64,000 nt of DNA, from the NCBI GenBank assembly GCA_019058315.1, contig JAHPZH010000002.1, forward strand, positions 941,910-1,005,909. Reading direction: 5' to 3'. Positions within the stretch are counted from its first letter, which is position 1. Each line of letters begins with the position of its first letter. Shown here piece by piece: positions 5,876-27,769 of this stretch. The DNA is from Candidatus Helarchaeota archaeon (GTDB lineage: Archaea; Asgardarchaeota; Lokiarchaeia; Helarchaeales; RDOG01). A program made the translations under genes and the position numbers. The notes below the pieces were generated by a model. It saw only the letters and a program-made list of their open reading frames with translations, ran no database searches and was not told where the DNA came from.

Positions 5876-5991
5876 ATATAATCTCTCAAAATACTCAATT
5901 ATTCGTTAAAAATATTTGTAATAAATAGTCAAAAATATTTTTAATAAAGTTCTTTTTATTTTTTAAATTTAAATGATTTATGAGTGGAATA

Positions 5992-6004
5992 TAACTGCGA
6001 TTAT
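5992..6004 (+). repeat. Right half (TAACTGCGATTAT) of the 28-bp array site; leftmost site
   Basis: Exact match to the right arm of the full copies; left arm and core differ (GAGTGGAATA). Confidence 0.65.
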
Positions 6005-6174
6005 GAGACACTAAGAAAATACAGAAACTAAAAAAAAGAAATTTGGTTTATAGAATCTTTAAAACGAGGGGAATTTCTATTTCTCAACAATAAAGAAGAT
6101 TCTAATTTAAAAACTTTTAAATAATTTTTCTTAAAAATACAATTAATTCCTTTTTTAAAAAGAAGGTTAAAAAT

Positions 6175-6714
6175 ATGAATAAAGCAGGAGCAGCAGCAGT
6201 AATTTTTTTCCTGTTAGCTGCTGGAGCCATCGGCTATATAGCCTATGAAACGATGCAACCTACTCCTATAGACCCAGGTACTGCGTTATATATATACGAG
6301 AAAATTTTTCCGCCACCTCCACAAAGAAATACTTGGTACACAAAATATGACAGTTATAAATATACAAATCCAGCCTTAACTAACATACTTTTCAGTGAAT
6401 TACGAATAGAATTTGAAATTAGACCTGGAGAACATGTATTATTTAGTTTTTCGACACAAATTTTTCTTCCTTCTGGTGGACCCTTTACGGCAGCTGCCTT
6501 TTTCGTTGTTGATGGAATTGATAAAGAAGCTGGTTATCCATCTTGCGGTGTTGCAATGGATACATCAGATGGTGCGAGTATTCAAAGTTGCTCAATGTTA
6601 ATGGCCCTTTCCTTATCTCCGGGAACACACAACGTTACAGTTAAGATTATTGGGACTGACACAGGAATAAGATTTTCTGACACTAGTATGGCAGTCCAAA
6701 CTTATACAACTTAA
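6175..6714 (+). CDS. N-terminally anchored or secreted beta-sandwich protein
   Basis: Hydrophobic N-terminus, Pro-rich linker, LSPGTHNVTV; similar to 41230..41772. Confidence 0.7.
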   Translation: MNKAGAAAVIFFLLAAGAIGYIAYETMQPTPIDPGTALYIYEKIFPPPPQRNTWYTKYDSYKYTNPALTNILFSELRIEFEIRPGEHVLFSFSTQIFLPSGGPFTAAAFFVVDGIDKEAGYPSCGVAMDTSDGASIQSCSMLMALSLSPGTHNVTVKIIGTDTGIRFSDTSMAVQTYTT

Positions 6715-6745
6715 TTTTTTTTTATTAAATCTGAAAAAATGATTT

Positions 6746-6773
6746 ATACCCAATTTCAGACTTAACTGCGATT
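6746..6773 (+). repeat. 28-bp putative recombination site, copy 1
   Basis: ATACCCAATTTCAGACTTAACTGCGATT (consensus). Confidence 0.9.
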
Positions 6774-6937
6774 TTGAAAAATTGAAATTTAGAAGTTTCT
6801 CATTTTATGTAGTGATTTATAATTATTTTTTAACCTGTTATTGGTGAAGGGATGTTCAGAGAAACTTTATTGCCACAAGTTTAAATTTATATTAAATAAT
6901 TATGAGATCTAAATCAGTATATTAGGAGATATAAATC

Positions 6938-7879
6938 TTGGAATTTAAAGAAGCAAAAAAGATAGAAGCAGAAAAGATAGAAAAAAATTTTAGAAATGGT
7001 CCATTTCAAGAGTATAAAGATAAATGTAAGGATATTAAAGGAGAGTTTTCAATTGATGATGCGGGATTTGAGATTTTTCAGGGCCCAATTCTAAATTATA
7101 ATCCAATTATGATAATTGGTTTTAATCCCGGATATGGGAAGAAGGCAGGACCGGCTCAAAAAAACTTAGAACATAGAATATATTATAATATCCACTCTAT
7201 TTATGACACATTTTTAGAAAAGAGAATAAAAGGAGATTATACATATTTTGCTAGAAATCTAAGGAGATATTTTTGTTTTATTTTTCTAAATGAAGAACAA
7301 GCTAATTATAAACACACTTGTATTAATAGGCAATATTTGAAGGAGCGGAAAAGTCATGAAATTGATTCTTCTGCTCAATTTATGGATTATTGTATGAGCT
7401 GCCCACCTGTGGTTCAAAGTAGAAAATGGTTTAAATTAGAAAAAAATGAAATTTCCATACCATTTAAAATATTAGCAAGTGTTTTTGCTACTAACTTGAT
7501 TTTTTTTAAATCACCTGTTGAAGAGAGGCTCCATAATTTAGAGCTTGCCCTTCAATTAAGTCGCTCTATATTAATTGAATTAATAAATAAAGCAAACCCT
7601 AAACTAATAATAACATTCGGAAACGAAGTAGAAGATGAATTAGAGAAATTGCAAAAGGAGAAAAAAATTCGTGAAGACATCAAAATTTGTAGGTTGAATA
7701 ATCCTTCAACAGATAGAAGTGGAGAACTTACAGAACCAGATAACATCGAAAGACTTAAAAAATTGAGAAACTTCATCAAAGAACAGATCCAGAAATCTAG
7801 CGAATTTAGGCAAGAAATAGACTTCATTCTTTATAAAAATAAATTAGAGAAATTAGAGGAATTATTAAAAGTTAGTTGA
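6938..7879 (+). CDS. Uracil-DNA glycosylase superfamily-like protein
   Basis: IMIIGFNPG, TNLIFFKS, PKLIITFG and LNNPS (HPS-like) motifs in UDG order. Confidence 0.55.
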   Translation: MEFKEAKKIEAEKIEKNFRNGPFQEYKDKCKDIKGEFSIDDAGFEIFQGPILNYNPIMIIGFNPGYGKKAGPAQKNLEHRIYYNIHSIYDTFLEKRIKGDYTYFARNLRRYFCFIFLNEEQANYKHTCINRQYLKERKSHEIDSSAQFMDYCMSCPPVVQSRKWFKLEKNEISIPFKILASVFATNLIFFKSPVEERLHNLELALQLSRSILIELINKANPKLIITFGNEVEDELEKLQKEKKIREDIKICRLNNPSTDRSGELTEPDNIERLKKLRNFIKEQIQKSSEFRQEIDFILYKNKLEKLEELLKVS

Positions 7880-7944
7880 CTTACTTAGCAATAAGTAGTC
7901 TTAAAATAAAAAGAGAAGGAAATTATTTTTGTATTTTAGATAAA

Positions 7945-8083
7945 AAAAAATTGCACAAATTAAGCTCTAACTCAAAGTAAAAAGTTGAGCTTGTCAGATT
8001 ATAAATAATTAAATGAAGAACTGGATATTTTAACTGAGAAATTCAAAGATGTTTATAAAAAGGTAAAGGGAAATAAGATAAGT
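7945..8083 (+). pseudogene. Decayed helical-hairpin coding remnant, in frame with the downstream GTPase
   Basis: ALTQSKKLSLSDYK*LNEELDILTEKFKDV (stop at 8006-8008) aligns with the tail of 44737..45396 (SLLKEKSLKLEDYQHLKKELDDLSEKL). Confidence 0.5.
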
Positions 8084-8734
8084 GTGAAGTTAAAATATAA
8101 AATAGCGTTGGTCGGAGATCCTAAAGTAGGAAAGAGTAACCTCCTTAATAGATATATTGACGGAATCTTTAACCCTCCCCCTTCACGAATAGGGGTAAAA
8201 TTTTATCAAAAGACTGTTCAAATTCCAGGAACAAATGAGGAGGCTCGATTTTTATTCTGGGAAATGATTAACAGAAGATTTCAAGGGATAATCGAGCAGC
8301 ATTTCAAGAGCACGAGTGGAGTCATATTAATTTTCGATACTACAAGAAGGGAAACATTTGATAACCTCACTTATTGGCATGATGAAATCAAAGGGCGCAT
8401 CAAAAATGTTGTTCCCGGGATTTTAATTGGGGCTAAAATGGATCTCGTGGACCAAAGAGTGGTATCAACTAAAGAAGCGCAAGAATATGCAGATAAAATT
8501 AAATATGCATACATTGAAACTTCTGCAAAAACAAATCATAACGTTACCAAAGCTTTTAATTTTATGATTAGGGAGCTTCTAATTCCTGAAAAAGCCAAGA
8601 TCGATGAACTTATTAATAAGATAAAGAAAATAGAGAAAGATGGATTAAAATTTACAGAAGAATTCAAAATATTAAAAAAAATTAAAGAATTAAAAAAATT
8701 TAAAGAAGGATTAAATAAGTTGTATGAAGATTAA
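8084..8734 (+). CDS. Rab-like small GTPase with degenerate G3 and C-terminal helical tail
   Basis: G1 GDPKVGKS, IGVKFYQK, G3 FWEMIN, G4 GAKMD, G5 ETSAK. Confidence 0.9.
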   Translation: MKLKYKIALVGDPKVGKSNLLNRYIDGIFNPPPSRIGVKFYQKTVQIPGTNEEARFLFWEMINRRFQGIIEQHFKSTSGVILIFDTTRRETFDNLTYWHDEIKGRIKNVVPGILIGAKMDLVDQRVVSTKEAQEYADKIKYAYIETSAKTNHNVTKAFNFMIRELLIPEKAKIDELINKIKKIEKDGLKFTEEFKILKKIKELKKFKEGLNKLYED

Positions 8735-8870
8735 AAAAAAATTTAGCTTGCATCATAGAACTAACAATTAATTTATACTTTTTTATGCCGTATTATATTG
8801 CAGGAGTTGTAGCAGATAATTTTAAGAAAATATCTGCTGAATTAAGAAAAGAATTGCTATTATGATAATT

Positions 8871-8898
8871 ATACCCAATTTCAGATTTAACTGCGATT
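8871..8898 (+). repeat. 28-bp putative recombination site, copy 2
   Basis: ATACCCAATTTCAGATTTAACTGCGATT (1 mismatch); between convergent genes. Confidence 0.9.
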
Positions 8899-8918
8899 AT
8901 GTTACAAGATGGATAAAC

Positions 8919-11900
8919 TTATATGTTAAGGAAAATTTCATTAACTAAATTTTCGGTATCTTTAAAAATACCCACATTTCCAGCGAATTTCTCTAAATCA
9001 ACCTCAAATTCTTTTTCAAATTTTAATAACATCTCCTTTTGCCTCTCTATGATTAATTTGTTTGGCAATCCTGAGGTAATGAGTGCGATCACTGTATATT
9101 TTCCGTCTTGAATGCCTATTTCGAAATGTTGGTATGATAATTTTTGCATCCCTGTTTCTTTGGCTTCCGCACCTAATTCCATACCAAAACTTCGAATTGC
9201 TGTCAGAAATCCACCAATTAAATCAGAATCTAAGGCGGTTTCAGCGAAATTATAGTTATACATGTTCACTCCGCTTGATTTATTAATCAACATCAAAGCA
9301 AATAAGATCATTCTAGCATATTGTTCATTCATTTTATTTAATTGCCCTCTTAACTGGTTATTTCCTGTTTGGATATTTCTTTTTGTTTGCTCATCTGCTC
9401 CTGGAGATTCAAAATAATTTTTAGTATTACTCTCTAAAAGAATGATTATAGCGTCCATGCAAGTCAATATATCATATTGTAAATTTAGATATGTACGATT
9501 CCAAATTTCATCTTCTGTAATCTTTTCTAGATCAGCAATCCACTTATTAAATATCTCTGTAAATATTTTTGTGACTTGTAAATCAGGAAAATACGAATTT
9601 GATTTTATATGTAATTCTTTTAAAATCAGTAAAATATTATCAATTGGTGCTTTTTCTATACATAAATTATTCAATTCCGAAAGTCTTTGAGTAAATTCGA
9701 ATGCATTATAAACCTTGCTGGTTATTACATCCATGGTAGTAGAGATTTTTCTGGAATATTTAATTGCTAGATTAATAAGATTCTTAATATAGGCTAAAAA
9801 TCCGGTAGCTTGTTTTATATCTTCTAAATAAATATCAATTACAATATAGTCTTGTATTATAATAAGCTCAATAATTATGAGATCTCCACCAACCTTAGCC
9901 ACCCCTGAATATGTAATATGGAATTTTTCCTCTTCTTCTTCTACCTTTGTTACATCTAAAGATGAGATTTGCTCTTTTGCTATTCGATATGCATTAGGTT
10001 TAGTCAAACCTTCAAAATTTATTTCACTATGACTTCTCTGGAGTGTCTGCATTAAGGAAATTAAATTCGATGAACTAAGTTTTTTAGGTTGGACAAGGGG
10101 ACATTTAATTTGAACAACATTTGGGGTAATTTCCATAGAAATTAACTCACTTTTAGCTGTTTTGTAACTTACTTTTCCATGAATTCGTGATTTTCCACAA
10201 GTTAATGGGGTTAAGATGAAATCTGTTCCTATTGATTCTCCTGGTTCCAAGATATCAATAGTATTTATTGGTGTATCTATTTCATATTGCTGTTTTTTAA
10301 TTTCCAATGAAACTAAAATATCTCTTATTATTCTATCAGAGGTGTTTTCGACAACTATTTTATACCTAATAGCTCCTCCGACATAATCATAAGCTCTTCT
10401 TATTACAAGATCTTCTTTTAATATTTTAATAGGTTTTTTGGTTGGTTGAATAACCTTGATTTCTCCTTTTTGTTTCCTAGCTGCGTAAAGAACTATCGCA
10501 ACGATAACAACTGAGCCAATCATTATAATTAGAATAATGATAAAAATAATATCACTCTCAGGAAAGAAAAAAAGAGGTAATGATTTCGGAGGGTCGGATC
10601 TAGGAGGCTCATCTTCTGAAACTAACTCTATATAAGCCGAACTCTCTATATATATTATTTCCCAATCACTTCCCCACTCGCCATTTGTATCATCATCCCA
10701 TACTACATGAATATTTCCATTTTCATCTGTAATAATGCAAGGATTCTTACTATCTCCATCATTCCATCCAATAAAATCCGAAATGCAAGTGGCATTAGAC
10801 CACCCTGCAGTTGTATAATTTATATACATAATTTCCCAGTCAGTTCCCCACTCTCCAGTTGTCCAATCCTGCCAAACGACATGAATGTTATCGTCATTAT
10901 CCGCAGCGATGCTTGGATAATTGCTCTCATTGTTATTCCAACCATATATATCTGAAATACAAGATACATTCGACCAACCCATAGATGTATAATTAGCATA
11001 CATAATTTCAGTGTCCGTCCCCCATTCACCATTTGTATCATCCTGCCAAACAACATGTAAATTTCCGTCAACATCTGTGATAATTCTGGAAAAATTACTA
11101 TAAGCATCATTCCAATCCCATATTCCTCCATATCCATCTGAAATTACGGTTACATTTGACCAACCTTTCGCAGTATAATTCACATACATTATTTCTTGAT
11201 CTATTCCCCATTGACCATTTGTTTCATCCTGCCAAACTACATGAATATTACCATTATTATCAATTGCGATCGAAGGATCTGAACTCTCGCCAGTATTCCA
11301 CCCCCAAACTCCCCCATATCCATCTGAAATCACAGTTGCATTCGACCAACCCTCAGCAGCTGTATAATTCGCATACATGATCTCAATATCAGATCCCCAC
11401 TCCCCAATTGTCCAATCATCCCAAGTCACATGAATATTACCGTTATCATCAACGGCAATACTAGAGTGATAACTATTACCATCATTCCATCCGGTGTAAT
11501 CGTCCGAAATTACCGTTGCATTTGACCAACCTTCAGCTGTATAATTAGCATACATAATTTCAACATCTGTTCCCCAAGCACCTACAGTTTCATCGTGCCA
11601 AACAACGTGGACATTTCCAAATTTGTCCGTAGTGATGCTCGGTTCACAACTAGCTTTATCATTCCATCCTAAATAATCATCAGAAATGATGGTCACGTTT
11701 GACCAGCCTGTAGTCATAGTATAATTAACATACATAATTTCTGAATCAGTTCCCCAAGATCCATTCGTATTATCTTGCCAGACGACGTGAATAATGCCAT
11801 TACTATCTGCGGCAACGCTTGAACAACAGCTAGTACCACTGTTCCAACCCCAAAACTCTTTATAACCATCCGAAATTACGGTTGCACTTTTCCATGTGTT

Positions 11901-13385
11901 AGTTAAATTATTTCTTATCCGTTGTATATAAATATCGTAATCTGAATTTCTATAATCATTCCAGCTTACTATTGCTCCTCCCATTTGGTCGCTAACAATA
12001 CTTGGAGCATAAAGGGAAACTCGTTCAGTACATACTGGAATTCCATCAGCTGTGAAATTGACTTGTCCTTCTCCATTAACTTGTTGTAAAAAAATAGATG
12101 TGTTAGTATATCTCTGATCTCCCCAAGTAATAAAAGCTCCCCCATTTTGGTCTGAACAGATTCGAGGGTAAAATTGAGTTGAACTCTCATTACAAATCAA
12201 AATCCCATTTGTAGTCCAATTTATTGTCCCAGTGGAATTTATACGTTGTGCATAGATATCAAAATCACCAAATCTATTATCATACCAACAAATAATAGCC
12301 CCTTCATAACTATCATCACAAATTCTAGGAGAATATTGGCTATTTCCATAACTACATATAAGAGTTCCATTATTATTCCATTTTATATAACCCGTTGAAT
12401 TAATTTTTTGTGTATAAATATCCTTAATCGAATCTCTAAAATCAAGCCAACTGAATATTGCACCTCCATTTTTATCGCTGCATATGTCAACACTGTATTG
12501 ATCTTCAAATTCTGTACAAATTTCCACTCCATTATCTTTCCATAACATAAATCCACTAGAATTAATCCTCTGGGCATATAAATCTTTGCCAGCTACAAGC
12601 CCATTTCTATTATCTTCCCAGACAATAATTGCTCCCCCATCCCCATCTTCGACTATTTTAGGAAGAGCATGATAACTAATATTACATATCGCAGTGCCAT
12701 TGTCAAGCCATTGAGTATATCCGCTGGAATTAATTCTTTGCGCATAAATGCCAGGGGGTCCATCTCTCTCATCTGCCCAAGTTATGATGGCACCTCCCTC
12801 TCCATCGCTACAAATAGAAGGTATCTGCTGGTGTAAAGCTAGGTTACAAATAGGAGTCCCATTTGGTATCCATTGAATATTACCCCTTGAATCAATCTTT
12901 TGTGCATAAATATCGTCACTTCCTGTCCTATTATCTTGCCATGTAATAATTGCACCTCTATTGCCATCACTGACGATTTTAGGGAGGCTCTGATATGCAT
13001 CTGAAGTACATATTGGTTTTCCATCAAGTGTCCATAAAAGAACTCCTCCCGCACTTATTCTCTGAGCATAAATATTGGAATCTGAGGCACTAACTCTATC
13101 ATCCCGCCAAGTAACTATTGCTCCTCCTACTCCATCTGGACATAGAGCGGAATCCATTTGATTATTAATTTCAGTGCAAATAGGCGTTCCGTTATTATAC
13201 CACTTTATTTTATATATTGTTGAAAGAAATTCCAATTTTTTATCATTTGGAATAGAAATACCGTTTTTACCAGGATTATAAATTGGTAAGGGTGAATTTA
13301 CTGATGAAATAAATAAAAAGAACGGGATAAATACCAAAATTATTAAAATAAAAAAATACCACTTTGGGAGATCTTTTTTTTTCAT
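8919..13385 (-). CDS. Large single-pass membrane protein: extracellular beta-propeller repeats, TM, Ig/appendage-like domain, C-terminal longin-like domain
   Basis: Signal/TM N-terminus; repeats DGxGGAIxxWxDxR...DIYAQRI; second repeat class PSIAxDxxGNIHVVWQD; TM IIFIIILIIMIGSVVIVAIVLY; C-terminal SGVNMY...DSDLIGGFLTAIRSFG...FEKEF. Confidence 0.85.
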   Translation of the reverse strand: MKKKDLPKWYFFILIILVFIPFFLFISSVNSPLPIYNPGKNGISIPNDKKLEFLSTIYKIKWYNNGTPICTEINNQMDSALCPDGVGGAIVTWRDDRVSASDSNIYAQRISAGGVLLWTLDGKPICTSDAYQSLPKIVSDGNRGAIITWQDNRTGSDDIYAQKIDSRGNIQWIPNGTPICNLALHQQIPSICSDGEGGAIITWADERDGPPGIYAQRINSSGYTQWLDNGTAICNISYHALPKIVEDGDGGAIIVWEDNRNGLVAGKDLYAQRINSSGFMLWKDNGVEICTEFEDQYSVDICSDKNGGAIFSWLDFRDSIKDIYTQKINSTGYIKWNNNGTLICSYGNSQYSPRICDDSYEGAIICWYDNRFGDFDIYAQRINSTGTINWTTNGILICNESSTQFYPRICSDQNGGAFITWGDQRYTNTSIFLQQVNGEGQVNFTADGIPVCTERVSLYAPSIVSDQMGGAIVSWNDYRNSDYDIYIQRIRNNLTNTWKSATVISDGYKEFWGWNSGTSCCSSVAADSNGIIHVVWQDNTNGSWGTDSEIMYVNYTMTTGWSNVTIISDDYLGWNDKASCEPSITTDKFGNVHVVWHDETVGAWGTDVEIMYANYTAEGWSNATVISDDYTGWNDGNSYHSSIAVDDNGNIHVTWDDWTIGEWGSDIEIMYANYTAAEGWSNATVISDGYGGVWGWNTGESSDPSIAIDNNGNIHVVWQDETNGQWGIDQEIMYVNYTAKGWSNVTVISDGYGGIWDWNDAYSNFSRIITDVDGNLHVVWQDDTNGEWGTDTEIMYANYTSMGWSNVSCISDIYGWNNNESNYPSIAADNDDNIHVVWQDWTTGEWGTDWEIMYINYTTAGWSNATCISDFIGWNDGDSKNPCIITDENGNIHVVWDDDTNGEWGSDWEIIYIESSAYIELVSEDEPPRSDPPKSLPLFFFPESDIIFIIILIIMIGSVVIVAIVLYAARKQKGEIKVIQPTKKPIKILKEDLVIRRAYDYVGGAIRYKIVVENTSDRIIRDILVSLEIKKQQYEIDTPINTIDILEPGESIGTDFILTPLTCGKSRIHGKVSYKTAKSELISMEITPNVVQIKCPLVQPKKLSSSNLISLMQTLQRSHSEINFEGLTKPNAYRIAKEQISSLDVTKVEEEEEKFHITYSGVAKVGGDLIIIELIIIQDYIVIDIYLEDIKQATGFLAYIKNLINLAIKYSRKISTTMDVITSKVYNAFEFTQRLSELNNLCIEKAPIDNILLILKELHIKSNSYFPDLQVTKIFTEIFNKWIADLEKITEDEIWNRTYLNLQYDILTCMDAIIILLESNTKNYFESPGADEQTKRNIQTGNNQLRGQLNKMNEQYARMILFALMLINKSSGVNMYNYNFAETALDSDLIGGFLTAIRSFGMELGAEAKETGMQKLSYQHFEIGIQDGKYTVIALITSGLPNKLIIERQKEMLLKFEKEFEVDLEKFAGNVGIFKDTENLVNEIFLNI

Positions 13386-13648
13386 TATAATTCACTAAAA
13401 TTTTTAAATTTTTATGTTAAAATTACTAATTACTACGAATTAATGTCATTTGAAATGAATATATTTTTTAAAAATCACATACAATAAGAATATATATTTG
13501 ATTTTAGAGGTAAGTCAATTTTTTCTAAACTCTTTTCTATTTGTCAAAGTCTCCTTTTTTTTCTATTTCTTCCATAATTATTACCTCAAATTATGGAATA
13601 TTGACTTCTTTAAAACTAATCTTTTCCTTTTTTACCTAAAGAATTGCA

Positions 13649-14138
13649 GAATGCCCCTGCCTTCAGCGGGGGATGCAAGCAACAACGAAGTCAAAATTAT
13701 TTTAGTTATCAATTAGTCTTTAGTGGTTTAAATAGATTGAACAAGCTAGAGTAGGTGATGAAGAAATATAGGGCAATCAAGGTAAGGTTGTATCCCAATA
13801 GAGAAGAGAGAGCATTATTAGATCAGACCTTTGGCTGTTGTCGATTCATCTATAATAAGATGTTGGAGGAGAGGATTAGGGTGTATAAGGAGTTAAAGGA
13901 GGATAAGGATACTCTTTATGCCCATAAATATAAAACAGAGAGGGAGTATAAAGGACAGTTTCCGTTTTTAAAGGATGTTGATGCAAAAGCATTGCAATCT
14001 GAGTGGAGACATCTAAAATCAGCCTATGACAATTTCTTCAGGAATTTTAAGAAGGGTATAAAGAAGGGGTTTCCGAGATTTAAGTCTAAGAAGTCTAAGC
14101 AGTCCTATACAACATTTAATAGTAATAACAACTTGTAA
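13649..14138 (+). mobile_element. IS200/IS605-family remnant: left-end hairpin plus 5' part of tnpB
   Basis: GC-rich hairpin CCCCTGC-CTTCA-GCGGGGG at 13654-13672, upstream of a truncated tnpB; no right end or tnpA seen. Confidence 0.75.
13755..14138 (+). pseudogene. tnpB: Truncated TnpB (N-terminal 127 aa; RuvC and Zn ribbon missing)
   Basis: AIKVRLYPN..LDQTFGCCRFIYNKML..FPFLKDVDAKALQ..AYDNFF..GFPRFKSKK..QSYTT, then stop. Confidence 0.88.
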
Positions 14139-14139
14139 A

Positions 14140-14379
14140 ATGGACATCAATGATAATAGCATCGATATAATCATATGTTTCGATGTGTTTCATGCCTTCG
14201 GAGCGAAAGAAGAAAGTATCTTAAAAGAATTTAGCCGAGTATTAAACAAAAATGGGTTTTTGTTAATAAATGACCATCATTACAAAGAGGATGAACTAGT
14301 ATCTAAAGTTTTGAGCCATAAAATCTTTGCTTTGAAAAGGAAAAAAGAAGACTTTTATTTTTTTTTAACTAATGACTAA
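14140..14379 (+). pseudogene. C-terminal fragment of a class I SAM methyltransferase
   Basis: DNSIDIIICFDVFH..LKEFSRVLNKNGFLLI; the GxGxG motif I half is absent; abuts the truncated tnpB. Confidence 0.7.
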
Positions 14380-15707: not shown

Positions 15708-15720
15708 GATTTGTATTATT

Positions 15721-19011: not shown

Positions 19012-20100
19012 TTAGTAATATGGAATGAACGGGAAACATTCATCAATAACCTTAGGAGTGTCTTTAAAAAGATTAACATCAGCTGTTTTTTGAAACTGGT
19101 CAATTTCGTTGCGATATTTTTTTGTAAAGACGTCTGCAAACAAATTGAGTGCTGATCTAAGTGATGCGCTAGATTTTGTAGCAAGCAAAACGAATACGAC
19201 ATGCAAGCGATCGGATTGTTTTAAAATCACTAAGCTCTCCTCAAGTTGTATTTCTTTTATGTTTCCTTTTTGTATAGTTTCTTTTACAAAATGACCCAAA
19301 GCTGAAATCATACCTGAAAAGAGATTTTCGTCGATTAAGAAATCTTTTTTATTCCATATATGGTCATATAGCGGGATGCTTTTATCTCGTTCGATTATGA
19401 CTAATCTAGATGCTTTAAACGGCAACAAGAATCCTAATTTCGGCTGCTTAGCGTAAACCACACCCATTAATAACGTTCCAATGGCAAAAAATATATCACT
19501 AAATGCAGGAATGGACTGGTTTATCTTCAAAGCGGTAACCAGGGGTGCCATTATCTGCTGGAATAAAATCCCAACATTTGCTAAATAAATCCAATTTTTT
19601 AATTCTTCTGGAGCATTACGCCAAAATTTAATTCCAAGATATATGACTGAAACCATGATGATTAAAACAAGTCCTAAGATAACGGATAAAAGCGTATCTT
19701 GAATGAAAATTGAGGGGTCTCCATTCGGATAAAGAAACTGGTAATAATATCTTAAATCGAAACAAAGAAAAAGCAACACTGCAGAAAGGAAGGAAATTAA
19801 CATCATTTTTCCCGTTTCGACAGATTCCCTGGTCATTACATCATAAAGTAAAGCGACGCTAAATGTTATTGGTATCCAAAGAATTACACTAAGAATTGCA
19901 TAAGTGAATGAGAAAAACAAAATTGCTAATCCTTTCGATACCTCCCATGATGTTAAAGAAAGGTAAGTTAAGGCACAGATGAAAAAATGTTTGTATCTTA
20001 ATCTAAAATATTGATAAAATAGAAAAATGGTGCCAAATGCTCCTGGAGCTGCACTGATAAAATAAATCATAACCTCTATTGTAAAAACCATAATAACCAT
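19012..20100 (-). CDS. 7TM membrane protein with C-terminal longin-like domain
   Basis: Paralog of 14604..15707 (shared D.M.RES, LPFKA.RL, DE.LFSGM, FPFIP). Confidence 0.8.
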   Translation of the reverse strand: MVIMVFTIEVMIYFISAAPGAFGTIFLFYQYFRLRYKHFFICALTYLSLTSWEVSKGLAILFFSFTYAILSVILWIPITFSVALLYDVMTRESVETGKMMLISFLSAVLLFLCFDLRYYYQFLYPNGDPSIFIQDTLLSVILGLVLIIMVSVIYLGIKFWRNAPEELKNWIYLANVGILFQQIMAPLVTALKINQSIPAFSDIFFAIGTLLMGVVYAKQPKLGFLLPFKASRLVIIERDKSIPLYDHIWNKKDFLIDENLFSGMISALGHFVKETIQKGNIKEIQLEESLVILKQSDRLHVVFVLLATKSSASLRSALNLFADVFTKKYRNEIDQFQKTADVNLFKDTPKVIDECFPFIPYY

Positions 20101-20193
20101 CTACTCAATTATAAGATTTCTTTTAATGCAAGATTTTTTAAATTTTCCATAACTTATAAAGCAATTAATTAATGAATATTCTTCAAAAAAGAG

Positions 20194-20817
20194 TTGAAAT
20201 TTGTGATAAAAAATCAAAAAATAATAGGAATTTGCGGAATGATTGCTCCAGTGATATTTAACTTGATATGGATTATCGGGGGTTTCATACAGCCCGGATA
20301 TAGTCATATTCGCGACGATGTAAGCACACTTATGGCATCGGGAGCACCGAACAAACTTTTATTCGATATTATGCATATTGCTGAATTAATTTTAATAATA
20401 ATATTTTTAATTGGCTTACTTCAAGTAATGAGAGATTTAGGAAACTCGTTTGTTGCTCCAATTTTATTTTTAATTTCACAGAGCATGGAACTTACTGTTA
20501 CAATATTTTTCCCTTTAGATTATGGTGGTGAGATTACCACATTAATTGGAACCATGCATTTTATACTTGTAGTGATACTTGGTTTCATTGCAATGGGTGG
20601 CATGTTTACAATGTGGTTTGAATTAAAGAAGGTAGACGAATGGAAGGGATATGATGTTTATTCGCTGATAACATTCATTTGTACTTTAACTCTTGGGCTT
20701 TTCTTATCAATGACTGCAGGAAGCGAAATAATGGGATTAATTGAAAGGTTCGTAATTGTTGCTAACGGACAATATTTCTTTGTAATAGCGTTAAAGGTTT
20801 ATCTTACAAGTGAATGA
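20194..20817 (+). CDS. DUF998-family membrane protein
   Basis: PGYSHIRDDVSTLMASGAP, FFPLD, TMH, GLIERF. Confidence 0.8.
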   Translation: MKFVIKNQKIIGICGMIAPVIFNLIWIIGGFIQPGYSHIRDDVSTLMASGAPNKLLFDIMHIAELILIIIFLIGLLQVMRDLGNSFVAPILFLISQSMELTVTIFFPLDYGGEITTLIGTMHFILVVILGFIAMGGMFTMWFELKKVDEWKGYDVYSLITFICTLTLGLFLSMTAGSEIMGLIERFVIVANGQYFFVIALKVYLTSE

Positions 20818-20912
20818 AATTAAATTTTATAAATCCCAATATATAATTAAGTTCAACTTTATTAACTAATTTAAATAATATACTTATTTAAACCAAAAAA
20901 GAGGGTATTTGG

Positions 20913-21629
20913 ATGTTATTTCGCAAGCTTGATGAAGATCGTGATCAAAAAATTGACGACTCAAAGCAATATCTTAAAAAGATACGAAATGATCTTGAAA
21001 TTTTAAAAAAGACAGACACTGGCATAGATTTTGATAATGTTGGAAAAAAACTTGATGCAATAAGTAAAATTATTGAGAAATTGCCTGAAAAAATTCCCAA
21101 GATAGAAATCACATCCAAATATATTAAAGAAATTTTCCAACTTCTAGAAATGTCCAACCAAAGCAATATTGCTTTATTAGTTGATATTGAAACTAAATTG
21201 GTAATTATGGGGTCTAGAATCCACTTGGTGGGTGTTCTTCAAAAAATAATTAAAAATCCTGATCGAAGGAGTATAGCACCTAGGGGAAAAATTTGGAAAA
21301 ATATTAAAGCATGTTTTCCTAGGTTCAAAGGTTTTAATGTGACCGTCTGGGGTGGTGGTGGATACATGACAAAAGCTGAAAGTTTTTCCGTTAAGTTAGA
21401 CGATTTTAAATATAAAAATGAAAAAACAGATTCTAAACTAACATCAAATCAAGCCCGTGAATCAGCTTTTAAAGAATTAATAAGTCTTGTAAGATCATTC
21501 CTCTCGTGGGAAATAGAGAAATATAGGGTGGACGAATATCTCAGGACTTGGACTTTTGATAAGGATTTAATAGTTAAGTTTCAATTCGATTGGCGTTCCT
21601 ATGAGGAACGATATGATCCAACAAGATAA
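20913..21629 (+). CDS. Hypothetical protein
   Basis: 238-aa ORF with an N-terminal coiled region. Confidence 0.65.
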   Translation: MLFRKLDEDRDQKIDDSKQYLKKIRNDLEILKKTDTGIDFDNVGKKLDAISKIIEKLPEKIPKIEITSKYIKEIFQLLEMSNQSNIALLVDIETKLVIMGSRIHLVGVLQKIIKNPDRRSIAPRGKIWKNIKACFPRFKGFNVTVWGGGGYMTKAESFSVKLDDFKYKNEKTDSKLTSNQARESAFKELISLVRSFLSWEIEKYRVDEYLRTWTFDKDLIVKFQFDWRSYEERYDPTR

Positions 21630-21693
21630 CTTTCATAGAAAATTTTGATAAAATCGTAATAATGGTAAGAAGAAAATGTTTTAAATTTATTGT

Positions 21694-21720
21694 CTACCCA
21701 ATCTCAAACTTACTGCGATT
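21694..21720 (+). repeat. 28-bp putative recombination site, copy 5 (degenerate)
   Basis: CTACCCAATCTCAAACTTA-CTGCGATT (3 mismatches, 1 gap). Confidence 0.8.
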
Positions 21721-21821
21721 ATAATAATTCTGTAGCATACTCATATTTTACTATTTTTGGTAGACAAAAATAAACGCTTTGATTATATGAATAAATTAAT
21801 AATAAATATTCTACTAAAATA

Positions 21822-22076
21822 ATGAATAACACATTTAGGTTTCAAAAGGAGTTGAATAAATTTAGTAAAATATCTGAAGATAAAGCTGTTAAATTAGCTA
21901 AAAAAGCGCTTTCGGAGAAAGGGTGGGATATTGAGAAATACATAATGAAAAAAGAAGAGTCTGATGAGAAATGGATAATCACTTTCGAAGGTAAAGAACC
22001 CCGACCTCCTGGAGATGAAATGACTATTTATGTTATTAAAAAAGATGGATCCATTAAGGTATTTATTGGAGAATAA
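21822..22076 (+). CDS. Small hypothetical protein (PepSY-like or immunity-protein-like alpha/beta)
   Basis: ISEDKAVKLAKKAL..KWIITF..PPGD..IYVIKKDGSI; family assignment is inference. Confidence 0.55.
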   Translation: MNNTFRFQKELNKFSKISEDKAVKLAKKALSEKGWDIEKYIMKKEESDEKWIITFEGKEPRPPGDEMTIYVIKKDGSIKVFIGE

Positions 22077-22198
22077 GAGAATTTTAAATTCTTAATTCCA
22101 ATTTCCTATAATAATTTTGCAGCAAATATCCATTTTTTGACTTCTTCGTGAGAGATATGATATAATAAGATAACCTGTAAAAATTTTAGTGGTAAATA

Positions 22199-23467
22199 AT
22201 GGATAAAATAACTTCTAAAGAAGATAAGAAATCTTTTCTATTATTAAAAAAGAAATGCGGGCTTATAGAAAGAGATTTTGCAGTTAATAAAAAAGGACAG
22301 CTCTATTATCTTAACCTTTCTGGTAAATATTTGAAAAAAATAGAAGGGTTCGAAAATTTCTCCCACTTACAAAAATTATATCTTTCTAATAATGAAATCA
22401 CGAAGATAGAGGGATTGGATAAGCTCTCCCAATTAAAAGAATTATATCTTGATAAAAATCAGATCAAAAAGATTGAAGGATTAGATAACCTCTCCCAATT
22501 GCGATTTTTATTCATTCCAAGTAATCCGATCACGAAGATAGAGGGATTGGATAAAATTTCTCAATTAACAGAATTAAATCTTGGGGAACTTAAGATCACT
22601 AAGATAGAAGGGTTGGAAAAGCTCTCCCTATTAATCTCATTATCAATTTCAAGAAATGAGATCAAAAAGATTGAGGGGTTGGAAAAGCTCTCCCAATTAA
22701 GAGAATTATGGCTTTCTGAAAATAAAATCAAAAAGATTGAGGGGTTAGAAAAGCTCTCCCAATTAATCTCATTATCAATTTCAAAAAATGAGATCAAAAA
22801 GATTGAGGGGTTGAACAACCTCTCCCAATTACAAACTTTATATCTTCCTAATAATCAGATTACAAAGATTGAGGGATTAGAAAACCTCTCCCAATTACAA
22901 GCATTAAACCTGAGTGAAAATCAGATCTCAAAAATCGAGGGGTTGGAAAACCTCTCCCAATTAAGAGAATTATACTTAGATGGAAATCTGATTGCGAAGA
23001 TTGAGGGGCTAGAAAACCTCGGTCATATAACAAGATTGGAGCTTCATAAAAATAGAATTTCTAAACTAGAAGGTTTGGAAAACCTCTCTGCATTAGAATG
23101 GTTAAATCTTTCTGATAATCAGATTATGAAAATTGAGGGTTTGAAGACTCTCTCCCAATTGAAAAAATTGAACCTAATAAACAACAAGATCTCAAAGATA
23201 GAGGGATTGGAATACCTCTCCAAATTAGCAGAGTTATATCTTTTTGGTAATCCCATAACTAAAATCGAAGGATTGAATATTCAGGATGTAAAAGCAGTAG
23301 TTATATACTGTCACCAAAAAAAAATACAGGACAAAAAAGATATGATTGCGGAATTAGAATATATTAAAGCACAAATAAATAAACCAGGAATTAAATTGTT
23401 AGAATTAAAATATTTAAAAAGACGCGTTCAGGAATTAACTGATAAATTAAGCGTTATTGATATATAA
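22199..23467 (+). CDS. SDS22-like leucine-rich repeat protein with helical tail
   Basis: About fifteen 22-aa repeats L.L..N.I.KIEGL..LSQL. Confidence 0.92.
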   Translation: MDKITSKEDKKSFLLLKKKCGLIERDFAVNKKGQLYYLNLSGKYLKKIEGFENFSHLQKLYLSNNEITKIEGLDKLSQLKELYLDKNQIKKIEGLDNLSQLRFLFIPSNPITKIEGLDKISQLTELNLGELKITKIEGLEKLSLLISLSISRNEIKKIEGLEKLSQLRELWLSENKIKKIEGLEKLSQLISLSISKNEIKKIEGLNNLSQLQTLYLPNNQITKIEGLENLSQLQALNLSENQISKIEGLENLSQLRELYLDGNLIAKIEGLENLGHITRLELHKNRISKLEGLENLSALEWLNLSDNQIMKIEGLKTLSQLKKLNLINNKISKIEGLEYLSKLAELYLFGNPITKIEGLNIQDVKAVVIYCHQKKIQDKKDMIAELEYIKAQINKPGIKLLELKYLKRRVQELTDKLSVIDI

Positions 23468-23485
23468 ATGATCTAAAACTATTCT

Positions 23486-23513
23486 GTTGCCAATTTCAGA
23501 TTTAATTGCATTT
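23486..23513 (+). repeat. 28-bp putative recombination site, copy 6 (degenerate)
   Basis: GTTGCCAATTTCAGATTTAATTGCATTT (7 mismatches); between convergent genes. Confidence 0.7.
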
Positions 23514-23575
23514 ATAGAACATTATTTTTTAATACTAAAAACTAAAAAGCTTAAAAAAAGGAAAAAAATTGAAGA

Positions 23576-25090
23576 TTATTGTTGCTTTTTGAGATAAACC
23601 AAGATTAAAACCACAGCTGCACCAATTCCAACAAAAATAACTGTAAGTGGAATTATTAATTGATCTCCCGCTCCTTGTAGCATCAAGAGGAGCAAAGGTA
23701 ATAAATTCTGTTCACCAGCTGAAGAGGGTCTTTCTAATAAGCGCATATTAGCATAGAAACTGGCGTATAACGTATTTTGGGCTTTGTCATTTGTCTGATT
23801 GCCGTAGTACCATTCGGGATCTAATGTACCATATCCTCCAAACACTATGCCAATAGGATTTATTCCTAATGGTAGACTGGTCACGCTTCCAAGATTTTGC
23901 CCGGTGTAGTTAACTGTTCGATTAATGGAGATCATCCACTCTATAATCGTATGGTTGCGACCAGATTCTTGCCCAGTCACATTGAAGCCAAAAGCCACAG
24001 TATAATTAAGATTGTTTAGAGAAGGTCCAAAATAACAAGTTATGTCTCGGTAACCACCTCGCTCAGTATGAAATCTTAAATCCTTAGTTCCATTATTATT
24101 AAGGTCAAGGAAAAGAAAGCCCGCATCATTAGCATCAGTGTTATTATCAGGTTCTACGTCATAGCAAATATATAGGTGGGTATTATCATGCTTGAGAAAC
24201 ACACTTATATTGTCGTCTGGATGGTTTGAAATTGGTTTAAAGAAGAAATGATATCGGGTCGCGTCGTCCCACTCGCCTGGAGTCATAATGCCGTCAATTT
24301 TAGGTGTTATAGTTTTGTATGGGCATAATAAATTAAGAAGTGGTCTATCTAATAAGAGCAAATCGGCATAGAAACTGGCATCGTTTGTACCCACAGGATT
24401 ATCATCTGTCTGATTGCCGTAGAGCCATTCAGGTGATAGTGTGCCGTATCCTCCAAAAACTACACCAATGGGATTTGTTCCAAATGGAAGACTAGATGCG
24501 CTTGTTAGATTCTGCCCTATGTAATTAGCTGTTCGATTAATGGAGATCATCCATTCTATAATTGTATGGGTGCGAGCAGGTTCTTGTGCGGTCAAATTGA
24601 AGCCAAAGGCAGCAGTAAAATTAAGGTTTGGTAGATTTCCAATGAAGGTCTGACTTACAAATCGAGATCCATCTCTTACCACTTGGAAACTAACATCTTT
24701 GTTTCCAGTATTATTGAGGTCAAGGAATAGATGGCCCGCATCATCGGTGCTATTATCATCATCTGGTTCAACATCATAGCACATAAATAGATGGGTATCA
24801 TTGTGCTTGAGAAAAATACTAATATTATCATCTGGGTGCCCTGAAGTTGGTCTAAAGAAGAAATAATATCGAGCAGCATCATTCCACTCTCCTGGAGACA
24901 TAAGACCATCGATCGTGGGTGTAAGAGCTGTTTTGGGACATAATAAAGTGGTATCTATAGAAAGTATATGGGTTGTTTCAAAATCATTCGACTGCGTTAC
25001 TTTGATTAATGGAGAAAATGAATTTGCTAGAAATAATGAACCTATGAACATCTGAAGGATTATTAAAACAAAAATTTTGCTTTTTTTCAA
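23576..25090 (-). CDS. Surface protein with two tandem CBM9/DOMON-like domains and a C-terminal anchor
   Basis: Signal peptide; duplicated ~200-aa unit starting TP.IDG.M.PGEW.DA; TM plus KKQQ. Confidence 0.75.
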   Translation of the reverse strand: MKKSKIFVLIILQMFIGSLFLANSFSPLIKVTQSNDFETTHILSIDTTLLCPKTALTPTIDGLMSPGEWNDAARYYFFFRPTSGHPDDNISIFLKHNDTHLFMCYDVEPDDDNSTDDAGHLFLDLNNTGNKDVSFQVVRDGSRFVSQTFIGNLPNLNFTAAFGFNLTAQEPARTHTIIEWMISINRTANYIGQNLTSASSLPFGTNPIGVVFGGYGTLSPEWLYGNQTDDNPVGTNDASFYADLLLLDRPLLNLLCPYKTITPKIDGIMTPGEWDDATRYHFFFKPISNHPDDNISVFLKHDNTHLYICYDVEPDNNTDANDAGFLFLDLNNNGTKDLRFHTERGGYRDITCYFGPSLNNLNYTVAFGFNVTGQESGRNHTIIEWMISINRTVNYTGQNLGSVTSLPLGINPIGIVFGGYGTLDPEWYYGNQTNDKAQNTLYASFYANMRLLERPSSAGEQNLLPLLLLMLQGAGDQLIIPLTVIFVGIGAAVVLILVYLKKQQ

Positions 25091-25226
25091 GAAAATTTAC
25101 TCCAAAATTTTTATAATTATTTATTTTGCTATATCTGATTATTTAATTTTTAAAAATTTTTAGGAATGATTTAACTAAATATTTCAAATGTTTAAAGAAC
25201 AGACATTTGAATGAATTAAAAATTCA

Positions 25227-25949
25227 CTATGAATCTTTTAGACCAATTTTAAACCCACACCAAACACATTCTATCGATGCTCCAGGAGTAGGGACTTTAT
25301 CAATTGGTCCTTTACAATTTGGACATCGCAAAGCTTCAAGTTCTTTTTCCAACCCCTCATATTTAGCTCCTCCCTTTTTTATTTCTGCCTTGATTCTATC
25401 TAAATTCATTAAATGTTTCTTATTAGTTGGTTCAATTTTATAGGCTGCTTCATAACAAAGAATGGCGTTTTTAATTTCTCCAAGGTTCTCATGGACTTTA
25501 CCTTTAGCATTTAAAACATCTAAATATTTTGGTTGTAATTTCAGAGCCCTCTCGAAAAAGTCAATTGCCCCATTAAAATTTCCAAGCTTAGCTTCCTTAT
25601 TTCCTAAATAATAGAGCCGTTTTGGTAGTTGCATCCATTTTTTCATTGCTTTATAAAAGTAAAGGCTTTTCTTTAAGTCATACTTTTTTTTGCCAAAAAA
25701 GATGTAAATTTTCTCTTCGCTTAATATTAATTCTGTATAATTGTAATCTATATCATTTCGTGATGAAACTGATACAATCATATGCATTTTAAGAGTTTTT
25801 GGTGTTCCCTTTTTAGGTTTAATGCATAGATTTTCTTCTGTTAATTCAATTTCGGATTCGATTTTATCAGACTTTTTTAGATTCTTAGAAGGAATGGTTT
25901 GAGAAAAAAACCCCTTCTTTTCATGAAAGGAAATTATTTCTTCTATCAT
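25227..25949 (-). CDS. PH-like + TPR + zinc-ribbon protein
   Basis: Two TPRs; CPNC..CVWC ribbon; N-terminal ELTEENLCIKPK shared with 28702..29346. Confidence 0.7.
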   Translation of the reverse strand: MIEEIISFHEKKGFFSQTIPSKNLKKSDKIESEIELTEENLCIKPKKGTPKTLKMHMIVSVSSRNDIDYNYTELILSEEKIYIFFGKKKYDLKKSLYFYKAMKKWMQLPKRLYYLGNKEAKLGNFNGAIDFFERALKLQPKYLDVLNAKGKVHENLGEIKNAILCYEAAYKIEPTNKKHLMNLDRIKAEIKKGGAKYEGLEKELEALRCPNCKGPIDKVPTPGASIECVWCGFKIGLKDS

Positions 25950-26129
25950 TTTTTTTCTCCAAATAAGTGAATTAAGGATTTTATTTTCATTTCCTTATTT
26001 AAAAATATCCATAATATTTGAAAACAACTATTTTTTTATCTTTTCTAATGATATAAAATGGATGGAGCTAAAGTTGAAAGTCCTCATATGATCAATTTTT
26101 AAATAAAACAATAAAAAAAATTCTAATTA

Positions 26130-27560
26130 TTACTTCCCACTTCTCCGGTCGGGACGTAATTTGGCTCGTGCATATGTATAACGAAATCTGAGTCCCATTC
26201 TATCTTTCAATGGTTTCATGAATTGTCCAACAGTAATCCCACCTTTTTTACACAAATCCGCTAATACTCTCCCGAACTTTTCTGGATTATCTATATGTTC
26301 CTCGGGTAAACCGAAACAGCCAGAACAAACCATATTTGCTTCATTAGGACAGATAGCACCACAACCAGAATTAGTAATAAAACCACAACACACATACCCC
26401 TGATTCAAAAAGCAGATATTCGGATCCATAATTCCTTCAAAATCTCGTTTATATCCTGTTATTGCCATATCTGGGCTTTTTCTATCACATTGATCGCAAA
26501 CAATTGTTTGACCAGCATCAAATCTTTCATCAAGTGAAAGTTTAAGCAATGCAACTCCAATTATATCTCTTGTTAATTCTGGTATGCTTGTAAGAATACT
26601 AATTGCAAGAGGACCTAATATTGGAGGATTTGCAGTTGCCACAGCTGTTAAATCCACTGCTTTTGCTCCCAATACATCTTTAGTTGGAAGCTCTAATTTC
26701 CTTAATCCCGCAATTTCTAGAATATTAGCATTAATATGAATATGTCCGAAATTTGGTAACTTCAAAGCAATAGTAGCAAATTCGATTATTTGAGCAATAT
26801 GTTTATCTGATAATTTTTCAACACTAATTGCCAATTTAGCAAGATCTACGGCTTCGGGATCAGCGGGTTTGGTTGAAATTCCCCACTCGCCCATTACTGG
26901 CTTGTTACCTTTTGGCCATCTCACTCCTGGTGCTGTAGCAGTGAGTGGTCCAAAGCATAATTTACCTTTTTTAAGGATACAATCAGCTCCACGCATCTCA
27001 CAGACTTCACAAACGTTAGTACCTGGATAATTCTCAGCTACCAAATACGTGGCAATGAAATAGACTGCACTCTTATAATTATGTGGTCTTGGAGGACAAC
27101 CAGGCATCCAAGCGTCGATTTTAACTATGTTCTCGTTAGGAACTACTTTGTCGGTGAATTTAGGAACATTTTCAATAGGTATAGCAAAATTATCAATAAT
27201 AGATTCCGCAGTTATAAATTTCCGTTTAGTGCATTCTTCAATAGGATAAATATTAGCAAGTCCTGCAACTGAACCATAACATGCACAAGTTCCATGCATA
27301 ATCAGGACTTTAGCTTTCTTGCGGATTGTCTCAAGTAAATGAATATCGTGTTCAGTACGAATTTGTCCTTCCACCATGCCAATATCAATTGAACCATCAT
27401 GCATATCTTCTAGTTGTTTGTCTTTTGTATCGACAACAGCTGCCCAATAAACTATCTCTAAAGCTGGTAAAATATCTAAAAGCTCTTCATGTAAGTCGAG
27501 TAGGGACTGATGGCAACCCCAACAACTACCGAGTTGAACAAAAGCTATTTTTATACCCAT
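26130..27560 (-). CDS. mvhG: F420-non-reducing [NiFe]-hydrogenase small subunit (MvhG-like), extended
   Basis: QLGSCWGCHQSLLDL, VEGQIR, GTCACYG, PGCPP, VCDQCDR, CFLNQGYVCCG..GCGAICP..CSGCFG. Confidence 0.8.
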   Translation of the reverse strand: MGIKIAFVQLGSCWGCHQSLLDLHEELLDILPALEIVYWAAVVDTKDKQLEDMHDGSIDIGMVEGQIRTEHDIHLLETIRKKAKVLIMHGTCACYGSVAGLANIYPIEECTKRKFITAESIIDNFAIPIENVPKFTDKVVPNENIVKIDAWMPGCPPRPHNYKSAVYFIATYLVAENYPGTNVCEVCEMRGADCILKKGKLCFGPLTATAPGVRWPKGNKPVMGEWGISTKPADPEAVDLAKLAISVEKLSDKHIAQIIEFATIALKLPNFGHIHINANILEIAGLRKLELPTKDVLGAKAVDLTAVATANPPILGPLAISILTSIPELTRDIIGVALLKLSLDERFDAGQTIVCDQCDRKSPDMAITGYKRDFEGIMDPNICFLNQGYVCCGFITNSGCGAICPNEANMVCSGCFGLPEEHIDNPEKFGRVLADLCKKGGITVGQFMKPLKDRMGLRFRYTYARAKLRPDRRSGK

Positions 27561-27635
27561 TATATTTTCACCAACTAATTGATTTTTAGAATTAAATAAA
27601 AATACTTCGTATTGATTTTATATCGAAAATAAACC

Positions 27636-27663
27636 TTACACAATTTCAGATTTAACCATGATT
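27636..27663 (+). repeat. 28-bp putative recombination site, copy 7 (degenerate)
   Basis: TTACACAATTTCAGATTTAACCATGATT (6 mismatches); between divergent genes. Confidence 0.7.
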
Positions 27664-27769
27664 ACAAAAAAGTCAAAATATGGAATTTTCTGAAATATAA
27701 AAATTAATAAACCATTTAAAAAAATATTTATATCTTTAGTTATAAAATTAAACTGAAGAAGGTGAGAAA

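Follow-up and report, generated by a model that had tools for sequence, protein, structure and literature searches.

How does one stretch of an archaeal chromosome come to hold seven copies of a single short sequence, each between different genes? The stretch is a 64,000-nucleotide piece of the genome of a Candidatus Helarchaeota archaeon (G000:C5:941910-1005909; the whole of it is called the window here), and the sequence is a 28-bp site that recurs across about 22 kb of it (5971-27663). The locus is probably a chromosomal gene-cassette array, in which an asymmetric site of 28-35 bp lies between units of one to six genes. In the genome under study the site is restricted to this one locus; it is conserved around different cargo in related genomes, and one cassette has been exchanged recently with break-points at its two sites. 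The following sections describe the site, its occurrence in relatives, the exchanged cassette, a mechanism by which the array may have formed, and the explanations that compete with it.

The genome (G000) measures 5.8 Mb at 30% GC and is assembled in 12 contigs. Labels with a capital C designate its contigs, L-numbers designate contigs or loci, and G001, G002 and G004 are other genomes of the phylum. Genes of the window encode Ras-family GTPases, leucine-rich-repeat (LRR) and tetratricopeptide-repeat (TPR) proteins, a chemotaxis cluster and large, expanded families of membrane proteins; the array region is about 85% coding. Contigs of related species were reached by exact-protein and cluster look-ups. 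Read-level data consisted of contigs only, and runs X2-X4 carry strains 94-98% identical to the genome, in pieces shorter than 1 kb.

A short site confined to one locus

The site has the consensus ATACCCAATTTCAGAYTTAACTGCGATT, often with TTCT in front and ATA behind, which brings its total length to about 28-35 bp. Seven co-oriented copies (c1-c7) and a partial copy at the left end, all intergenic and all on the + strand, had been listed in an earlier note on this DNA, and each was recovered at its position. Copies c1 (6746-6773) and c3 (14459-14486) agree with the consensus at 28/28 positions. Copy c2 (8871-8898), which lies between convergent genes, agrees at 27/28, with T at the Y position, and c4 (15721-15748) at 26/28. 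Further to the right, c5 (21694-21720) is decayed by three substitutions and a 1-nt deletion, and c6 (23486-23513; 21/28) retains its central CAATTTCAGATTTAA between two decayed arms. The last copy, c7 (27636-27663; 22/28), is canonical through ...TTTAAC and then has CAT for TGC, three consecutive bases. Mismatches from left to right thus number 0, 1, 0, 2, 4, 7 and 6, and the part that survives in decayed copies is the central CAATTTCAGAYTTAA. The first, partial site (5971-6004, + strand) begins with the left flank AAATGATTTAT, which is common with c1, has its 16-nt centre swapped for 10-11 nt of unrelated sequence, and ends with the exact right arm TAACTGCGATT, located at 5992.

In the rest of the window nothing came within 8 mismatches of the site on either strand, which bears out the earlier statement that no full copy lies there. 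Among the 11.6 million positions of the genome, 21/28 was reached only four further times and 22/28 never; because such matches are so rare, c6 and c7 are significant (p about 0.01 for this 22 kb and this strand). A genome scan with a profile of 15 copies, a check that the earlier note had called for, was performed with nhmmer; the seven array copies were its sole matches (E 2e-12 to 2e-5), followed below threshold by the half-site at E 0.6. The motif is accordingly not scattered over the genome. Shuffled sequence gave zero matches, and a pattern search allowing up to 3 mismatches gave no copy in 399 other genomes of the phylum. In a k-mer survey of the genome the site was the sole isolated short repeat family with at least three local copies, the other families being paralogous genes. 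The site matched no tRNA piece and no Rfam family (gathering threshold or E<=5), and no viral contig contained the motif.

The same site around different cargo in related genomes

A test proposed beforehand was whether modules in relatives are present, absent or reordered at site boundaries, and this was seen on two contigs, L038 and L041. The same site occurs in four independent assemblies from different studies. Three related contigs (L038, L041 and L042) are 82-93% identical to G000 at the nucleotide level, and the site is found on the first two.

Contig L038 (GCA_048887025.1; 13.7 kb) belongs to a short-read metagenome-assembled genome (MAG) whose orthologous genes are 82-89% identical. 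It carries five intergenic co-oriented sites, namely a degenerate first site, a 28/28 copy, a copy with a 2-nt deletion, a second 28/28 copy and one with 2 mismatches. Separated by sites, the cargo follows in the order lactamase-rhodanese gene, 367-aa gene (that of cassette D, see below), TPR plus radical SAM genes, hydrolase plus two small genes, and propeller plus 238-aa genes. Neither the lactamase-rhodanese gene nor the hydrolase nor either small gene has an orthologue in G000, and the matches of the TPR and propeller genes there are paralogues only. The radical-SAM gene, which in G000 lies outside the array (35450-36394, + strand), has its orthologue inside the array on L038, with a perfect site after it. 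Genes begin 5 and 24 nt past two of the L038 sites, as in promoterless cassettes.

On L041 (GCA_013375355.1; 84-87% identical) two sites in the same orientation enclose a toxin-antitoxin-like pair (DUF2283/RelE-like). After the sites come a 180-aa gene, whose G000 orthologue is on another contig, the 238-aa gene and then directly the radical-SAM gene. Gene order is permuted between the three genomes: radical SAM precedes the 238-aa gene on L038, follows it directly on L041 and follows it after 14 kb in G000. At least three related genomes therefore have the same site around cargo that differs and is permuted, and copies of the site are 28/28 identical between species whose intergenic DNA cannot be aligned. 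L042, a contig of a 93%-identical strain, joins the 238-aa gene straight to the next cassette. It is without a 135-nt segment (21631-21765) that contains the decayed c5, which may reflect either a deletion there or an insertion here.

At the left end, homology with a third sister species (L036) stops at 5923, which leaves 48 nt to the first site. The gene that flanks the array on this side (5198-5875, - strand; 225 aa) is DUF6308-like by language-model features only. On L038 the array begins 10 nt past a conserved 126-aa gene, and on L036 the 126-aa and 225-aa genes are about 1 kb apart. In G000 the same interval, from C5:934917 to window position 5923 (about 13 kb), holds a che cluster, a methyl-accepting chemotaxis protein gene and the 225-aa gene. 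Since the whole che cluster sits between the two genes, it appears to be an insertion in a variable region.

One copy was found outside this group of species. A metagenome contig of the Joint Genome Institute (JGI), L007, which is otherwise unrelated, carries a 34-nt identical copy that overlaps the stop codon of a small membrane open reading frame (ORF), downstream of a TYW3 gene. Positions 3896-4050 of this contig are a truncated membrane-protein gene, reduced to its 55 N-terminal codons, that ends 16 nt from the site; the corresponding stretch of the homologue, which is intact in G000, is C3:450197-450357 (71% nucleotide identity). TYW3 was not found in G000, and the TYW3 of L007 is at most 35% identical to any in 151 sampled genomes of the phylum. 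The site is therefore also present, beside a rearrangement break-point, in a distant organism. The other two of the three exact matches in public collections (L006 and L008) were set aside as chance matches inside a coding region.

Recent exchange of cassette D

Cassette D (14487-15720) consists of one 367-aa membrane gene between c3 and c4 and is common to L038, while the adjoining cassettes differ. Together with both sites (14449-15751) it is 97.2% identical to L038 at the nucleotide level, with 114/116 identities in the noncoding leader and 1077/1104 in the coding part. Homology starts about 10 nt to the left of c3 and ends 3 nt past c4, so that the two sites form the left and right edges of the common module; the neighbours beyond them are unrelated. 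Divergence between G000 and L038 at third codon positions is 4.6% in cassette D, compared with 17-24% in the radical-SAM gene, the 238-aa gene and a flanking 127-aa gene. As divergence is low and homology ends at the sites, cassette D moved between the lineages long after their split. The array, with its new kind of short site, has been active recently on an evolutionary time scale.

Seven variants are listed for run X2, of which the cassette D allele of L038 has five; it differs at others. A protein of the same 90% cluster is encoded on a JGI contig beside a different neighbour, a convergent 330-aa gene.

Cassette contents

The units measure 741-5945 bp. Cassette A (6005-6745) holds one 179-aa gene (6175-6714, + strand), and cassette B (6774-8870) a 313-aa orphan gene and a Ras-family GTPase. 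Cassette C (8899-14458) contains a 1488-aa propeller receptor on the minus strand, a truncated insertion sequence (IS)/TnpB fragment (13629-14138) and the 3' end of an orphan methyltransferase gene. Six genes make up cassette E (15749-21693), encoding an HXXEE protein, a 247-aa protein, a TPR protein, a paralogue of the cassette D protein, a DUF998 protein and the 238-aa protein. Cassette F (21721-23485) holds an 84-aa gene and an LRR protein gene, and cassette G (23514-27635) three minus-strand genes, for a 504-aa protein, a TPR protein and an Oxidored_q6-domain protein.

The cargo consists of ordinary genes of the lineage and is not obviously foreign. The 367-aa protein of cassette D belongs to a family of which the genome has 16 copies, and several cassette genes have fairly recent paralogues elsewhere in it (73-87% nucleotide identity). 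The duplicated blocks are dispersed and their edges do not match the sites; local segmental duplication was therefore rejected as the source of the array. The Ras-type GTPase gene (7997-8689), for example, has a recent paralogue at C5:333193-333911 (83% nucleotide identity), and the identity takes in 87 nt upstream and leaves out the last 15 codons.

Two further observations concern small insertions. The truncated IS copy in cassette C (13629-14138), which encodes a TnpB N-terminal helix-turn-helix, is 84-87% identical in nucleotides to copies at C3:1386436 and C6:149772. It abuts the C-terminal methyltransferase fragment (14140-14379), a sign of decay within the cassette. Just to the right of the array, an 83-nt direct repeat (28615-28697 and 29413-29495; 81% identical), made up of the last 60 nt of an amidase gene and 23 nt beyond, encloses a single passenger ORF (28702-29346, minus strand), a small insertion that is likewise recombinase-less and has a different 'site'.

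Hybrid end sites and proposed mechanism

The sites at array ends differ in build from those inside. The first site of L038 (4334-4361) resembles the first site of the window array: a left flank and an exact right arm, AACTGCGATT, are separated by a shorter, unrelated centre. The last site, c7, is read as a hybrid in which the left part derives from a cassette site and the right arm from the original target. The canonical parts of these three hybrids overlap at AAC alone (positions 19-21 of the site; GTT on the minus strand, inside GTTAAGT), and because of this limited overlap the pattern would be one of reciprocal exchange, as far as three sites can tell.

Some copies agree beyond the 28 bp. 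On the right side, AGATTTCATTCAATT is found in the first L038 site and in L007, and ATGAGACA in the first site of the window array and in the second L041 site. On the left side the extension is TTCT, and 25 nt of left flank are common to site 4 of L038 and site 2 of L041 (L038 8944-8998 and L041 1322-1376), an extended variant held in common by unrelated cassettes. Such sharing suggests that in some copies the functional site extends past 28 nt, and also that the site travels with the cassette.

In the mechanism proposed here, a site on a circular cassette would recombine with a site in the array by reciprocal site-specific recombination, and units would enter, leave and be exchanged in this way. 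The recombinase would be encoded elsewhere and act in trans. The first event may have been recombination of a site-bearing circle with a secondary site; cassettes that came later may have entered at the full site by reciprocal exchange, with the crossover at or beside the AAC triplet, which reads GTT on the opposite strand. The climb in mismatches from left to right suggests that new cassettes enter at the left and that sites decay toward the right. Confidence in the crossover point and in the class of enzyme is much lower than confidence in the array as such. The interpretation given in the earlier note is retained where it proposed a cassette array built by recombination between direct repeats, lacking attC hairpins and served by an enzyme in trans; its dif/Xer part is not supported, for the reasons given below.

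Several observations weigh against a cassette array of this kind. No recombinase gene was found in or beside the arrays in the window, on L038 or on L041. A circular or empty-site junction was not seen in the contig data, which could neither show nor exclude one, and the joints listed for runs X2-X4 have sides of 20-29 nt and do not lie at sites. Clear dyad symmetry, as is usual at the core of a tyrosine-recombinase site, is missing. Some break-points are off the sites, in that the upstream neighbour of the 238-aa gene varies and the paralogue blocks are unbounded by sites. Copy c5 is wholly missing from L042, rather than one site being kept. Finally, a chimeric join at 33-nt identical repeats is possible for cassette D, L038 being part of a short-read MAG and G000-like strains being present in other samples; independent contigs that bridge the L038 junctions are not on record. 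The remaining comparative evidence is independent of cassette D.

Alternative explanations and candidate enzymes

A first alternative to a cassette array is a conserved cis signal, such as a terminator, an insulator or a protein-binding site, with the shuffling as a by-product of homologous recombination anchored on identical stretches. Six of the seven sites lie 14-137 nt past the stop codon of a + strand gene, and over all arrays 11 of the 13 sites with a known upstream gene sit just past the stop of a co-oriented gene. The sites are also far better conserved than their surroundings, and such islands of identity are where one would expect homologous-recombination tracts between 85%-identical genomes to stop. 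This explanation nevertheless leaves it unexplained that the same element stands on unrelated, lineage-specific genes and at one locus only, and it accounts neither for the hybrid end sites nor for the identical L007 copy beside a truncated gene. A conserved fold was not found either: DNA folds of 131 nt around each copy gave no common hairpin, with z-scores near 0 in six of the seven and -2.2 in one. We regard a cis signal as unlikely. Readings as a C/D-box small RNA, a small peptide or a 3' gene end gave nothing consistent by eye and in the open-frame listing; the motif is absent from the 3' ends of cassette-gene paralogues elsewhere in G000. For a 'handle plus guide' RNA, the flanks matched AT-rich noise only.

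Alternatively, each cassette could have been inserted with duplication of the whole target, in the manner of Cas1 at a repeat of a CRISPR (clustered regularly interspaced short palindromic repeats) array or of a casposase. Arbitrary DNA would go in at the first repeat still intact and the 28-bp repeat would be copied, which would produce a polar array whose fresh repeats lie at one end. Five giant ORFs (1474-2772 aa) with an N-terminal DEAD/Helicase_C region and a central Cas1 domain above the Pfam cutoff are encoded in the genome (L026-L030; C6:304694-312496, C7:30995-39310, C11:723909-730388, C1:395420-399841 and C11:837694-843981). One of them ends in LRR repeats. These fusions of a superfamily 2 helicase and Cas1 would be the integrase, and G000 has no CRISPR array. 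A length of 28 bp is that of a CRISPR-like repeat, mismatches climb from left to right as in a polar array, and the cargo is ordinary host-type DNA, gene fragments included. On the other side, none of the five fusion genes (0/5) is found closer than 64 kb to the array. At both ends of the array the site is a partial hybrid and not a full duplicate, the genes upstream of the sites are biased in orientation, and the cassette ends are without terminal inverted repeats, since none was significant beyond AT-rich matches. The extended site variants common to unrelated cassettes suggest, moreover, a site that travels with its cassette. Hybrid ends, missing inverted repeats and travelling variants fit reciprocal recombination better than Cas1-type insertion, to which we assign a low probability.

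The earlier note had described the site as dif-like, with two 11-nt arms in imperfect inverted repeat around a 6-bp core. It could then be the chromosomal dif site or a mimic of it, the modules being elements of the IMEX (integrative mobile elements exploiting Xer) or pdif type stacked by the host Xer recombinase. The length of 28 bp agrees with this, IMEX arrays at dif consist of direct repeats with decayed copies, and a Xer-like tyrosine recombinase is conserved at the level of the family and of the order. The inverted-repeat geometry did not hold up: the arms are complementary at 6/11 positions, near the level that an AT-rich sequence reaches by chance (expectation about 3.2, p about 0.07), so that 11-6-11 describes the length only. 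The dif sites of single-recombinase systems are near-perfect palindromes, those of Thermococcales having few or no arm mismatches (PMC2958812). A dimer resolvase would remove a set of four or more intact copies in direct repeat, and the inferred crossover (AAC, positions 19-21) does not fall in the 6-bp spacer that had been proposed. Searches of G001, G002 and G004 gave no site, although all three carry an orthologue of the Xer-like gene (54-62% identity), and this gene scores 70 bits against a cutoff of 220 for the XerA model. Nor did GC skew, by which the replication terminus was to be found, give support; it is flat along the 1.4-Mb contig, and a terminus therefore cannot be placed. A role of the site as dif is very unlikely.

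Ends of a mobile element, put forward in the earlier note as the alternative to an array, are not supported either, there being no terminal inverted repeats and no copies elsewhere in the genome. IS200/IS605, IS91 or Helitron ends in particular were rejected, with no copy outside the locus, no hairpin and no Y1 transposase. Chance similarity or an assembly artefact, conceivable in an AT-rich genome with its two weakest copies at 21-22/28 and with short-read MAG contigs, is practically negligible given zero matches in shuffles, profile E-values down to 2e-12 and four independent assemblies with the site.

Which enzyme would then serve a cassette array? The window contains no match to PF00589, and the genome contains two, one 125 kb away and the other on another contig. 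One of these tyrosine recombinases is the Xer-like protein discussed above (C5:822787-823824). The second (C7:268588-269715; L044 6586-7716) is lineage-specific; a comparison with 40 relatives gave no match. For both, the score is far under the XerA and IntI cutoffs; for the integron-integrase model TIGR02249, the best score in G000 is 24 bits against a cutoff of 265. No serine recombinase, HUH transposase or Y1 transposase was found in G000. The left flanking 225-aa gene was considered as an intI analogue and rejected, as it has no family match and is not beside the array on L038.

The gene of the second tyrosine recombinase is divergent from an ORF of at least 1836 aa (C7:270036-275543; L044 8037-13544), which runs off the contig end, and the two may form an aloposon-like element. 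Aloposons themselves, with tRNA targets and giant genes, are not comparable to the array.

Tentatively, the locus may represent a native Asgard gene-capture system that acts on a double-stranded 28-bp site and moves host-type genes (small GTPase, longin, LRR, TPR) between species, with either a lineage-specific tyrosine recombinase or an array-less helicase-Cas1 fusion as its enzyme. If so, families that are signatures of eukaryotes would be moved between species, and a function might be given to the orphan Cas1 fusions.

Comparison with known systems

Change in gene content in Asgard archaea is central to ideas on how the eukaryotic gene set was assembled, and to our knowledge few mechanisms of gene flux are known for these archaea. 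The locus offers a concrete and testable one, a short site that brackets single genes or small groups, the cargo of which varies from one sister species to the next. Orphan recombinases or Cas1 homologues of the lineage may gain a first functional context from it, and a new tool for recombination could be made from an asymmetric 28-bp site and a dedicated recombinase.

In archaea, integrated elements may accrete in tandem at one att site, and a small integrated element without integrase, 'mini-Yucahu', is described from Atabeyarchaeia, another Asgard lineage (PMC8371274; PMC11529989). Repeated att copies between serially integrated DNA are a likeness to the present locus. In the present array, however, neither integrase remnants nor genes of viral or plasmid type are seen, and its target is not a tRNA or any other gene; units go down to one gene, and the same site is kept across species with different cargo.

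With CRISPR arrays and casposons the locus has in common a 28-bp repeat, a polar array with degenerate distal repeats and Cas1 homologues in the genome. The 'spacers' differ, being 0.7-6 kb of genes; neither a leader nor adjoining cas genes are present, terminal inverted repeats are missing, and the end sites are hybrid.

Arrays of IMEX at dif in Vibrio (CTX/TLC) consist of direct repeats with decayed copies, and the pdif modules of Acinetobacter plasmids have sites of alternating orientation. In these Xer-dependent modules, as here, 28-bp sites bound modules that lack a recombinase of their own, and the enzyme acts in trans. The present sites differ by having no dif-like dyad symmetry and by being all direct, whereas those of pdif modules alternate. 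No evidence was found that the site is the host dif, and it does not co-occur with the Xer-like gene.

Integrons are the closest parallel. Their attC sites are imperfect palindromes of 55-140 nt that fold into hairpins (R''-L''...L'-R'), and clusters of attC sites without an integrase are known as CALINs. Like these, the locus has co-oriented sites, each after one or a few genes, and its content varies between related genomes with edges at the sites. Toxin-antitoxin-like and single-gene cassettes occur, and an adjoining integrase is missing, as in CALINs. The crossover, which three sites would place at GTT/AAC in a GTTRRRY-like heptamer, would recall the G/TT crossover of integrons. The differences lie in the site and in the cargo. 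The site is 28-35 bp long and has no R''-L''/L'-R' halves; as the copies have no shared hairpin, it is not an attC, and there is no IntI. Copies are nearly identical within and between species, and many cassettes are multi-gene, have both orientations and have their own upstream regions. The locus works like a chromosomal integron or CALIN and lacks the two features that define integrons, the attC hairpin and IntI. Standard, attC-based integron finders would miss the array, given these differences from attC/IntI integrons. Integrons and CALINs with true attC sites have already been reported in Asgard MAGs (Ghaly et al. 2022, PMC9668308). The integron concept is therefore not new in Asgard archaea; what would be new is the short type of site in an integron-like array.

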